From IMG/VR virus record IMGVR_UViG_2875713109_000006: a stretch of DNA of 5,364 bases. One strand, 5' to 3'. The position numbers were made by a program, and so were the translations under genes. Under the pieces are notes generated by a model. That model did no database searches and was not told where the DNA came from. It saw only the letters and a program-made list of their open reading frames with translations. The DNA comes from a virus. Taxonomy: Duplodnaviria > Heunggongvirae > Uroviricota > Caudoviricetes. How positions within the stretch are numbered: the first letter of the stretch is position 1; every line of letters starts with the position of its first letter. This document shows, piece by piece, positions 1 to 5,235 of this stretch.

Positions 1-276
1 AAGATACCTAGCATAAAGAATGATTGATTTTTGAATGATCTATTTTATGATTTATTGCAATAAAATCCAAGCCATCTATATGGTAAATTGCCATAAAATC
101 AATCAGTTCAATAAATCAGGCTGAAACACGACTTCGATATAACATCAAAGAAAATAAAAATAATATATATAAATCATAAAGATAGAATACTCACAACAAC
201 CTTATCCCCACGAAAAACTGATAAACACTGAAATTCTTTTCAATCTTTTCAGTTTGGGTTTTCCGCAAAGCCACCA
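1..276. other. AT-rich non-coding tract with short repeated motifs (AAATCA, ATGAT) and one near-DnaA-box TTATCCCCA at 202..210
   Basis: All six frames are dense in stop codons. The only ATG-initiated ORF (35..124, 29 aa) has no Shine-Dalgarno and low-complexity composition. Base composition is visibly more AT-rich than the adjacent coding DNA. TTATCCCCA matches the DnaA box consensus TTATNCACA at 8 of 9 positions. Confidence 0.5.
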
Positions 277-342
277 GTGCTGGCGCGAGATGACAGTCTG
301 GTTTGTAGAAAAATAAAACTGAAAAAATTTATCGATCCAGAA

Positions 343-360
343 ACCGCAGGCGGGTGCGGT
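343..360 (-). terminator. Candidate stem-loop (ACCGCA / 6-nt loop / TGCGGT), possible weak terminator for the leftward early operon
   Basis: Perfect 6-bp inverted repeat 343..348 / 355..360. On the - strand the stem is followed by UUUCUGG and, a few nt later, by U-rich runs; the U-tract is not contiguous with the stem, so a classical intrinsic terminator is doubtful. Confidence 0.25.
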
Positions 361-370
361 GTAGTGCCGT

Positions 371-400
371 TTTTGTCTGCGAAAGATTTATTTTGTCTGC
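371..400. repeat. Exact 10-bp tandem direct repeat TTTTGTCTGC (371..380 and 391..400), 20-bp periodicity
   Basis: Read directly from the sequence: ttttgtctgc-gaaagattta-ttttgtctgc. It lies in the non-coding stretch downstream of the exonuclease gene. Confidence 0.6.
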
Positions 401-554
401 ATGTGGCTACCTCAGAGCGTCGCTGTGAATTTGATCTTATTGCGGTGTCGCAGTGGTTACCCGCGATCGTTTTTTCGCAGTTCGGCCTTTTTCTGGCCAG
501 CCACTACTGCATCAAGGTATTTCGGCGCAATCTTTATCGTGTGGATTTTGATTG

Positions 555-2572: not shown

Positions 2573-3076
2573 TCACATCAGGCCGGTGGCGTTGGTTGTG
2601 ACCAGATCCACCGCAGCGGCCAAAACCGGCGCAGAGTGAATACGGCTTTCAACGGTATAAGCCAGCACGGATAAGCTACGGATTGCATCTCGGGCACGAT
2701 CCAGAATTTGAGTACGGCGGGCGGCGGTCATATGACCAGCTGATACGGCTTCCCCAGCAATCGCGCCCACACTGGCTGTGGCGCTCAGTGCACACAGTTG
2801 CATGTTGCCTTCTGTTGCATTGTTCACCGGTACGGATGGAAGGCAGTTAATCTGCCCCAGCATCCCATCCAGTAAACGCGCATCTTCGGTGTAATCCGTG
2901 ATAGCCAAAAGTTCATCACAGGTCAGGCGGTGCGGTTGCGCTGGGTTCAGTTTATTACGCAGGATCTGTGGCCTCATACCAACGGCAGCGGCCACATCTT
3001 CAAGATTGTGCTCAATTGCAAATGCTCGGCAAGCCGCATCAAAGTGCGCATGTTTAGAGGTCTGGTAATCAAACAT
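2573..3076 (-). CDS. cII: CII-like transcriptional activator (167 aa), phage 186 CII family
   Basis: N-terminus MFDYQTSKHAHFDAACRAFA and the internal LRNKLNP-QPH segment match my recollection of phage 186 CII, which is of similar length. Strong RBS GGGAGAGG 6 nt upstream of the ATG. Located directly downstream of the Apl-like gene, as in 186. Confidence 0.75.
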   Translation of the reverse strand: MFDYQTSKHAHFDAACRAFAIEHNLEDVAAAVGMRPQILRNKLNPAQPHRLTCDELLAITDYTEDARLLDGMLGQINCLPSVPVNNATEGNMQLCALSATASVGAIAGEAVSAGHMTAARRTQILDRARDAIRSLSVLAYTVESRIHSAPVLAAAVDLVTTNATGLM

Positions 3077-3106
3077 TGTTTGCCTCTCCCTAATCCGTAG
3101 GATGGA

Positions 3107-3328
3107 TTACGCTTTAAGCGAAATGTCACATTCGCTTAAAGCCTGAATAGTGAGCGCGGCCATGTTGACTTCGACCAGGCCTTTCTTCTGCTTACCCTTC
3201 GGCTTAATAGGTAATTTCCCGTATTCGATCAGGTTCCTGGCGGTTTCTTTGTTGGTACCAGTACGGCGGCAATACTCGTCTAAAGGCAGGTATGGCTCTG
3301 GGATGATGATTGTAATGTTCGGACGCAT
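3107..3328 (-). CDS. apl: Apl/Cox-like small HTH protein (excisionase / lytic-side repressor), 73 aa
   Basis: First gene of the leftward operon, divergent from the repressor gene. ATG at 3328..3326 is preceded by GGAG at 8 nt spacing. The N-terminus MRPNITIIIPEPYLPLDEYCRRTGTNKETARNLIEYGKLPI aligns in register with my recollection of the P2 Cox N-terminus. The ORF track extends it to a GTG at 3388 (93 aa); the true start is unresolved. Confidence 0.65.
   Translation of the reverse strand: MRPNITIIIPEPYLPLDEYCRRTGTNKETARNLIEYGKLPIKPKGKQKKGLVEVNMAALTIQALSECDISLKA
3111..3142. promoter_or_regulatory. Perfect 12-bp inverted repeat GCTTTAAGCGAA / 8-bp spacer / TTCGCTTAAAGC inside the last 11 codons of apl
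   Basis: Read directly: gctttaagcgaa-atgtcaca-ttcgcttaaagc. It encodes ALSECDISLKA on the - strand and is not followed by a T-tract on either strand, so it is not a terminator. It lies about 280 bp from the switch. Confidence 0.4.
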
Positions 3329-3447
3329 GAGGCAAACTCCATAAGTTAACCTGTACGGCAATACAGGGCTGTAACTGTCAATATTCACTTAAACCTACAA
3401 AGCGGAGTTTAAACTCACTCCGCGCAAGATTTCAAGGTAAAACTTTC
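3329..3447. promoter_or_regulatory. Divergent apl-cI intergenic region: presumed lysis/lysogeny switch with promoters and operators
   Basis: Contains (i) dyad CCTGTA-N6-TACAGG at 3350..3367; (ii) a perfect 12-bp palindrome GAGTTTAAACTC at 3405..3416 nested in GCGGAGT-N8-ACTCCGC (3402..3423); (iii) a candidate - strand promoter TTGAAA (3435..3430), 16-bp spacer, TTTAAA (3413..3408); (iv) a perfect TTGACA on the - strand (3381..3376) with no matching -10. Promoter assignments are by eye and uncertain. Confidence 0.5.
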
Positions 3448-4026
3448 GTGAATCTACAAATTGAGTTTTCTCATGGCGGAGCTGAGGTACTAGATAGAGT
3501 TATCCAAGCGTATGGATTCAACACAAAACTAGCCCTAGCCGAACATCTTGATATAGCAAGCAGCAGTCTGGCTAACCGGTATAAGAGGGATTTTTTTCCA
3601 GCTGATATCGTTGTTAGATGTATGGCTGAAACAGGAGCTACTCTGGAATGGCTTGCGACTGGACAAGGTAGAAAGTTTAACGATGACGAATTAGACATCA
3701 TGAAATTGCCACGCAAGAAGATTGTGGACGGAAAACTCTATGAGTCTGGTTTCCTAATGCTCGATAAGGTTACTTTTTTACCTGGCAAACCTTTACCGCA
3801 GAATCCTATCTGTGTGATTGATAACACAATGCAATACATTGTTGATCAACACTTTACTGAAGTTTATGACGATGTTTGGCTTGTCGAAGTTGAAGGTAAA
3901 ACCAGCGTTAGAACACTAACACGCATCCCTGTGGGAAAAGTTAGAGTAAGCGGCGTAGGTATGGCTTTTGACTGCGGTATTGACGATATAAAAATCATCG
4001 GCCGCATTGTTCTGACGATTGAATGA
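3448..4026 (+). CDS. cI: CI-type immunity repressor (192 aa), phage 186 CI family
   Basis: Length and N-terminal region (VLDRVIQAYGF...LDIASSSLANRY) match my recollection of 186 CI (192 aa). N-terminal HTH-like segment followed by a C-terminal domain. GTG start at 3448 with AAGGT about 10 nt upstream; there is no in-frame ATG near the N-terminus. Directly upstream of and co-oriented with int. Confidence 0.75.
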   Translation: MNLQIEFSHGGAEVLDRVIQAYGFNTKLALAEHLDIASSSLANRYKRDFFPADIVVRCMAETGATLEWLATGQGRKFNDDELDIMKLPRKKIVDGKLYESGFLMLDKVTFLPGKPLPQNPICVIDNTMQYIVDQHFTEVYDDVWLVEVEGKTSVRTLTRIPVGKVRVSGVGMAFDCGIDDIKIIGRIVLTIE

Positions 4027-5068: not shown

Positions 5069-5235
5069 AAATACTGCCGAATACTCACAGATATTAACTA
5101 ACGTAACTTATTGATAACACTGTAAGTTATTGTTTTTCGTAGATAGTTGATGCTTTATAATATAGCCTGTGCTATATCTGTATGTAATGCAATCATCCCT
5201 CAAGGATCGACGGGATTAGCAAGTCAGGAGGTCTT
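5069..5235. other. AT-rich spacer downstream of int; candidate att / prophage-end region
   Basis: In P2-like phages the attachment site lies just beyond the 3' end of int. The region holds direct repeats TAACTTATTG (5103..5112) and TAAGTTATTG (5123..5132) and AATACT (5070..5075, 5080..5085), plus a TATAAT hexamer at 5156..5161. No tRNA-like structure was seen and the core cannot be identified from the sequence alone. Confidence 0.3.

Follow-up and report, generated by a model that had tools for sequence, protein, structure and literature searches.

A nested dyad over the predicted lytic promoter as the probable primary CI operator of a 186-like prophage of Escherichia coli

A 22-bp element with nested dyad symmetry (5'-GCGGAGTTTAAACTCACTCCGC-3' at positions 3402-3423) is proposed here to unite, in a 186-like prophage, the core of the lytic promoter pR and the primary CI operator, a reading to which we assign a probability of roughly 0.6. 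All positions refer to the window, i.e., the whole stretch of DNA that was analysed, comprising 5,364 nucleotides of the viral record IMGVR_UViG_2875713109_000006. Promoter activity, a transcription start and CI binding at this element are inferred from its sequence, its gene context, its pattern of conservation among relatives and its replacement together with the repressor in a sibling. An earlier note on this DNA had placed an operator for CI or Apl over the core promoter of the lytic transcript. The first of these two proteins is favoured by positional homology to 186, by an invariant core, and by the exchange observed in the sibling L008, whereas the second is disfavoured by the presence of Cox-like boxes at 3357-3384.

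The window is identical to positions 3122702-3128065 of the chromosome of E. coli PSS-07 and is a truncated P2/186-like prophage. Its RefSeq genes are those for an integrase, CI, a 'regulator', CII, Fil, three small ORFs, a 3'-5' exonuclease and a truncated gene, beyond which unrelated genes follow; mntS flanks the prophage according to the same annotation. The gene order int, cI, Cox-like apl, cII, fil is that of 186, with cI-int transcribed away from the lytic operon (apl/cox-cII-fil) and a spacer of 119 bp (3329-3447) between them, as compared to 129 bp in 186. The repressor gene cI (3448..4026, plus strand, GTG start, annotated as such in RefSeq) encodes both the helix-turn-helix domain Phage_CI_repr and the oligomerisation domain Phage_CI_C (Pfam E-values of 2.5e-25 and 6e-31). 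Its product (WP_001053198.1) shares 41% identity over 178 aa with 186 CI, the recognition helices being nearly alike (IASSSLANRY in the window, IASSSLSNRY in 186), and CII is 44% identical to 186 CII. The first gene of the lytic operon (3107..3328, minus strand) is the apl analogue, encoding a Cox-like excisionase/repressor of phrog_575, where 186 has Apl; no similarity was found between its 73-aa product and 186 Apl. In window positions 1-457 the prophage ends after the exonuclease gene and a DUF3850 pseudogene, and other E. coli with this prophage align only from position 458 on; the genes adjoining the truncated end (L001, 16956-20558) encode DprA, a hypothetical protein and a DUF6680 protein.

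A CI protein identical to that of the window is encoded on 876 contigs of Enterobacteriaceae, and as an identical switch sequence is found on a 30-kb viral contig (IMGVR_UViG_2778261166_000009), the switch can be assigned to a phage type that is functional. Megablast, blastn and tblastn gave no isolated phage of this immunity type, the best CI match being 73% identical. The prophage represents an immunity type that is heteroimmune to 186 and was previously unstudied; the kind of switch that it carries is already known.

Both symmetries described in the earlier note were confirmed. GAGTTTAAACTC at 3405-3416 is a perfect 12-bp palindrome, and GCGGAGT (3402-3408) and ACTCCGC (3417-3423) form a perfect inverted repeat with 7-bp arms around the N8 gap TTAAACTC. 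The tetramer ACTC occurs in tandem at 3413-3416 and 3417-3420, and the dyads are nested because GAGT (3405-3408), being complementary to both copies, pairs with either of them; the axes are therefore 2 bp apart, at 3410.5 for the inner and 3412.5 for the outer dyad. The window contains four perfect 12-bp palindromes versus 1.5 expected, and approximately five loci with 7-bp arms and loops of 3-10 nt versus 3.2 expected. When the dinucleotides were shuffled, a 7-bp-arm repeat with an overlapping 12-bp palindrome arose anywhere in about 5% of the shuffles, and in about 6% any such element fell within the cI-apl spacer of 119 bp. The symmetry of the single sequence is only marginally beyond chance, and the significance of the dyad must therefore rest on comparative data and context.

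With respect to context, a promoter scan of 3000-3700 returned a single sigma-70-like site, located on the minus strand (TTGAAA-18 bp-TAAACT). The predicted pR -10 hexamer TAAACT (3406..3411) is 1 bp off the place of the 186 pR -10 when the cI start codon is taken as reference, the predicted -35 hexamer TTGAAA (3430..3435) overlaps the cI ribosome-binding site AAGG (3434-3437), and both hexamers lie within 1-2 bp of the 186 pR positions as measured from that codon; in switches of the 186 type, the lytic promoter is situated 12-43 bp upstream of it. The palindromic hexamer TTTAAA (3408-3413) had been put forward as the -10 element; it lacks A2 and T6, the most conserved -10 positions, whereas both are present in TAAACT (3411..3406 on the minus strand), which shares four bases with TTTAAA and is likely to be the actual -10. 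At the aligned position relatives carry TACACT (L003, L084), TAGGAT (L008) or TAATAT (L148 group), in each case with a spacer of 18 bp to a -35 of the form TTGnnn, which reads TTGCAA, TTGAAT or TTGCAT. Transcription from pR is predicted to start near 3399, and the 7-N8-7 dyad covers -24 to -3 of the predicted promoter. On the plus strand, the lysogenic promoter pL is predicted at 3310..3338 (TTGTAA-17-CAAACT); its hexamers (TTGTAA at 3310-3315, CAAACT at 3333-3338) are weak, yet they lie exactly at the annotated 186 pL positions relative to the apl ATG. By analogy with 186, pL and pR would thus be arranged face-to-face, with predicted starts (near 3345 and 3399, respectively) approximately 55 bp apart versus 62 bp in 186.

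In the 186 record (NC_001317, Eganvirus ev186), three CI sites together reach from the start codon of cI to a point 57 bp upstream of it and overlie pR, the -35 and -10 of which lie inside this span; the annotated sites are also the locus of vir mutations. The same record lists seven Apl sites between pR and pL, and hexamers of pL around the start of apl. At pR, 186 CI occupies three operators that are two helical turns apart and span about 56 bp (PMC3675496). In P2/186-like phages in general, the primary repressor operators are situated over the lytic promoter, and the Apl/Cox operators between the transcription starts or over the lysogenic promoter (PMC7498355). Transferred to the window, the 186 CI-site span corresponds to 3392-3448, with the dyad in its middle. 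The switch resembles that of 186 in CI family, gene order and distance of the predicted pR from the cI start codon, and the dyad resembles the 186 central operator in its short arms, 8-bp gap, conserved centre and pattern of arm variation. The sequences themselves are unrelated (TATCTC-CCAATTGA-GAGATA in 186, GCGGAGT-TTAAACTC-ACTCCGC in the window). Moreover, the 186 site fills the -35/-10 spacer, whereas the window dyad covers the -10 and half of the spacer and is shifted by about 7 bp, and the 2-bp offset of the inner and outer axes is a property of the window dyad that is not seen in 186. The 186 A-type site ATTCAC-N5-GTGAAT was not found in the window at up to three mismatches, which is expected because the phage is heteroimmune; lone half-sites occur at 3383-3388 (ATTCAC) and 3448-3453 (GTGAAT), 59 bp apart. 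No convincing flanking operators were detected two helical turns (+/-21 bp) from the dyad, and distal operators of the FL/FR type were found neither at about 300 bp from pR, where the sole dyad at a fitting distance (3111-3142) is not immunity-specific, nor inside cI.

Scans of genome, viral and metagenome collections yielded 19 distinct sequences of this switch type, from relatives whose CI is 68-100% identical and has a common helix-turn-helix (KLALAxHLxIASSSLANRYKRDFFP). In the ungapped alignment of these sequences, 3406-3408 and 3410-3419 are invariant, the core AGTKTAAACTCACT (3406..3419) being shared by the relatives with this helix-turn-helix; within the inner palindrome the 10-bp core reads AGTTTAAACT in 17 of the 19 and AGTGTAAACT in the other two. 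The invariant stretch takes in AACTCACT, eight bases of the pR spacer that have no promoter role. Positions 3420-3430 are mostly variable, with 3424 and 3427 as the only invariant positions there. Of the outer dyad, the three inner pairs (AGT at 3406-3408, ACT at 3417-3419) never vary and the four outer pairs (3402-3405, 3420-3423) do. Among the 76 cells of the variable pairs, 50 are Watson-Crick versus 38 in column shuffles, 89.5% versus 82.3% of the cells are paired when G.U is allowed, and the covariation score amounts to 0.307 versus 0.179, all relative to shuffles that ignore relatedness. Because these controls do not account for phylogeny, the comparison provides moderate evidence that the dyad symmetry is maintained among relatives. 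Perfect outer dyads are encountered in three versions (GCGGAGT/ACTCCGC, ACGAAGT/ACTTCGT and ATGGAGT/ACTCCAT).

Among phages with 99%-identical CI, the right arm reads ACTCCGC, ACTTCGC, ACTCTGC or ACTTTGC, and because of these differences the outer arm bases cannot all be specific contacts. More probably, the specific contacts of CI would be made in the invariant centre rather than in the outer arms. A calibration set was obtained from 80 loci of the 186 type, which gave 16 distinct pR sequences and have the helix-turn-helix of 186 save for one I/T position. In this set the central pR operator, which is experimentally defined in 186, has a near-invariant centre (CCAATTGA in 186 and in nine of the 16 distinct sequences), flanked by arms that read TATCTC/GAGATA, TACTTC/GAAGTA or TATTCC/GGAATA, with imperfect intermediates. 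Since a bona fide operator thus shows arm covariation while the DNA-binding domain is constant, such covariation is no argument against operator status.

Most CI groups have a dyad of their own, which has group-specific arms and is located 56-92 bp before the conserved VLDR codons. The sibling L008 (Escherichia sp. ESNIH1) matches the window through the Cox boxes to ...CTTAAACCTACAAA and keeps the left flank up to CCTACAAA; from exactly there the dyad differs and reads CCGAATC-CTATACTT-GATCCGG, which is again 22 bp long and 7-N8-7, in the same place and with the same geometry, but of another sequence. Its CI is 70% identical, with the recognition helix IASSSLAMRY versus IASSSLANRY in the window. 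To judge from L008, which swaps the dyad and the recognition helix and keeps the left flank, the dyad is exchanged together with the repressor, as expected of an immunity operator. In lambda-type heteroimmune phages, operator and repressor are exchanged together, and at lambda OR dyad operators overlap the -10 and -35 of the lytic promoter PR. A dyad operator over the lytic promoter and the co-exchange of operator and repressor would be common to lambda and the present switch, whereas lambda differs in its divergent promoters, in the fold and oligomer of its repressor, and in its three tandem related 17-bp sites. The P2-type switch (Pe/Pc, C repressor, Cox) is also different, as the window encodes a CI and CII of the 186 type; the C repressor of P2 is not related to CI and binds two direct repeats and no dyad (PMC1904268).

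It is unlikely that the element is a promoter only, with the conserved core representing the surroundings of the pR -10, the symmetry being fortuitous or drifting, and CI binding elsewhere, for example at the flanking blocks 3389-3399 (CTTAAACCTACA) and 3432-3458 (CAAGGT...GTGAAxCTACAA). Such a view is consistent with the fact that perfect palindromes of this length are no rarity in the window, that the outer arms are imperfect in 16 of the 19 relatives, and that the flanking blocks are conserved about as well as the core; these blocks showed neither dyads nor a common motif at +/-21 bp. However, a -10 hexamer leaves the eight invariant spacer bases unexplained, as it does the complementarity at the variable arm positions, which is above that of shuffles. 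In addition, L008 replaces the whole 22-bp dyad by one of the same geometry along with the repressor, and dyads are present at this place family-wide.

An RNA hairpin formed by the outer dyad in the plus-strand lysogenic transcripts (from pL and the CII-dependent pE), affecting the stability or translation of the cI-int mRNA instead of or besides an operator, appears rather improbable. The hairpin would have a stem of 7 bp and a loop of 8 nt and would lie 10 nt ahead of the Shine-Dalgarno sequence of cI, and the plus-strand stem is predicted at -10.4 kcal/mol (z = -5.0). The covariation of the arms at a constant CI DNA-binding domain is what a hairpin, in RNA or DNA, would show, and the same-strand dyads at 3350-3367 and 3111-3142 resemble 5' hairpins of lysogenic transcripts. 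These points are countered by an invariant 'loop' and a variable stem, the reverse of a typical structural RNA, by the same covariation pattern in the known DNA operator of 186, and by the dependence of the element on immunity type, with which the dyads at 3350-3367 and 3111-3142 do not change. The arm mismatches (12 G.T versus 7 A.C) are without strand preference, and an attempt to derive the strand of a hairpin from them was dropped. A search of the element with the Rfam covariance models gave no relevant match at E <= 1.

The dyad at 3350-3367 (CCTGTA-CGGCAA-TACAGG) is situated between the predicted pL and pR starts, beginning about 5 nt past the former, and its opposite strand is the apl 5' leader. 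Pairing amounts to 99.2% across 23 sequences that represent several immunity groups, with compensatory changes in six of six pairs (CCGATA/TATCGG, GGATA/TATCC, CGACA/TGTCG, GAGCG/CGCTC and others), almost no G.U and a conserved loop of the CGGCAA type; it is by far the strongest structural signal of the region. In the present lineage, 3351-3366 reads CTGT-N8-ACAG, which is the core of a LexA box with a G+C-rich centre. This likeness is probably coincidental, because the arms are unrelated in other lineages. The sequence ACCAGTACGGCGGCAATAC (3257-3275, in the Cox-like gene) repeats ACCTGTACGGCAATAC (3349-3364), the left part of the same dyad, with one mismatch and a 3-nt insertion.

The dyad at 3111-3142 is a perfect inverted repeat (GCTTTAAGCGAA-N8-TTCGCTTAAAGC, 12-bp arms) in the final codons of the Cox-like gene. 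Approximately 100 loci of different CI types retain this repeat, which covaries at synonymous codon positions (e.g., AGC/TCG to AGT/TCA) and is not immunity-specific, since it is present in loci of other CI types. As a candidate FR-like CI operator it was rejected, being unchanged in such loci and part of a conserved stretch that encodes the Apl C-terminus, and a CI half-site of reversed polarity that had been derived from it (YTCRCTT) was withdrawn, as this half-site is not enriched window-wide. It was also rejected as a CII site, given that the homologue of the 186 CII site is located at 3050-3076, where ATGTTTA-N13-CAAACAT overlaps the cII start codon and agrees in half-sites, spacing and position with ATGTTTG-N13-CAAACAT of 186. 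A possible pE -10 (TAGGAT) is found at 3098-3103, and because the inverted repeat starts at the predicted +1 of the CII-dependent pE (near 3110), it could be the 5' hairpin of the establishment transcript. A wider interpretation, which we consider distinctly improbable, would make the dyads of the switch dual-purpose. The operator dyad would also fold in the cI leader, the dyads at 3350-3367 and 3111-3142 would be 5'-terminal hairpins of the lysogenic transcripts, RNA structure would protect the lysogenic mRNAs under convergent transcription, and arm covariation, even at the 186 operator, would reflect RNA constraint and not repressor contacts.

Direct repression of pR by the Cox-like Apl analogue bound at the dyad is very unlikely. 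In 186, the first Apl operators are at -1 to -6 and +5 to +10 of pR, and Apl spreads into adjacent DNA (PMC7498355); the left arm of the dyad falls in this zone. Nevertheless, operators of recombination directionality factors are direct repeats one helical turn apart (PMC7498355), whereas the element is an inverted repeat, and the dyad changes with CI and not with the conserved Cox-like protein. Direct-repeat boxes of this kind are present at 3357..3384 on the plus strand (GGCAATAC ... GTCAATAT). They correspond in relatives to two or three CAATA boxes 10-11 bp apart (e.g., GGCAATACAGG GCAATAATGG GCAAT), are common to several immunity groups, and are the probable operators of the Cox-like excisionase/repressor. 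By eye, 5088-5109 (CCGAATACTCA CAGATATTAAC), between int and the prophage end, is loosely similar to two CAATA-type boxes 11 bp apart; this is where the sites of such a factor are expected in the int-proximal att arm.

The suggestion in the earlier note that the -10 might be usable on either strand is not supported, and a plus-strand cI promoter with TTTAAA (3408-3413) or TAAACT (3410-3415) as its -10 is extremely unlikely. TAAACT is indeed also present on the plus strand, where it is invariant, and TTCACT (3385-3390) is located 17 bp upstream of TTTAAA. However, TTTAAA is without A2 and T6, the scan called no promoter on the plus strand, and pL of the 186 family sits face-to-face near the apl start, exactly where the window has its hexamers. 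Moreover, TTCACT, the sole -35 candidate, is replaced by CTTCCT or TTTCCT in relatives, and because it is unconserved, the element appears to bear the -10 of the minus-strand lytic promoter only. Finally, the proposal that the minus-strand hairpin (predicted at -11.8 kcal/mol) and the following UUUGUAGGUUU form an intrinsic terminator has a negligible probability, in view of a U-run that is interrupted after 3 U, where a terminator calls for at least 5 directly behind its G+C-rich stem, right-arm C-to-T changes in close relatives that would create A.C mismatches in the minus-strand stem, a terminator scan of 3000-3700 in which none was found, and a position upstream of the predicted pR start, because of which the lytic transcript would not contain the hairpin.

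Further repeats were noted in and around the switch. The direct repeat CTACAAA occurs at 3395-3401 and 3454-3460, 59 bp apart, with 0.7 matches expected window-wide; its second copy constitutes cI codons 3-5. Three copies at intervals of about 30 bp are present in some relatives (GCTACA three times in L003), and in L008 the two copies on the right-hand side of the dyad are CTAGA and the left copy stays CTACAAA. A role of these repeats as operators is doubtful, the second copy being coding and the left copy in L008 remaining CCTACAAA despite the changed repressor. Two 16-mers, GGCAAACTCCATAAGT (3331-3346) and GGAAAACTCTATGAGT (3730-3745), are 81% identical; the former coincides with the apl ribosome-binding site and the predicted pL -10, and the latter is inside cI, at about 320 bp from the pR dyad, which is roughly the distance of FL in 186.

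In the proposed mechanism, in which the dyad is the CI operator, pR would drive minus-strand transcription leftward into the Cox-like apl, cII and fil. A CI dimer bound at the dyad, probably within a multimer of the 186 type, would cover the -10 and the promoter-proximal part of the spacer. It would thereby block RNA polymerase and shut off the lytic operon, and would relieve interference on the convergent pL (approximately 3310-3338, plus strand).

These findings leave the known switch architecture of the P2/186 type unchallenged. They would assign a lytic promoter and a probable immunity operator to a widespread and unstudied type of 186-like prophage. Moreover, the relatives provide natural variants of the operator against an unchanged DNA-binding domain, a set that could be used to dissect whether CI proteins of the 186 family read the invariant centre or the co-varying arms of their operators.
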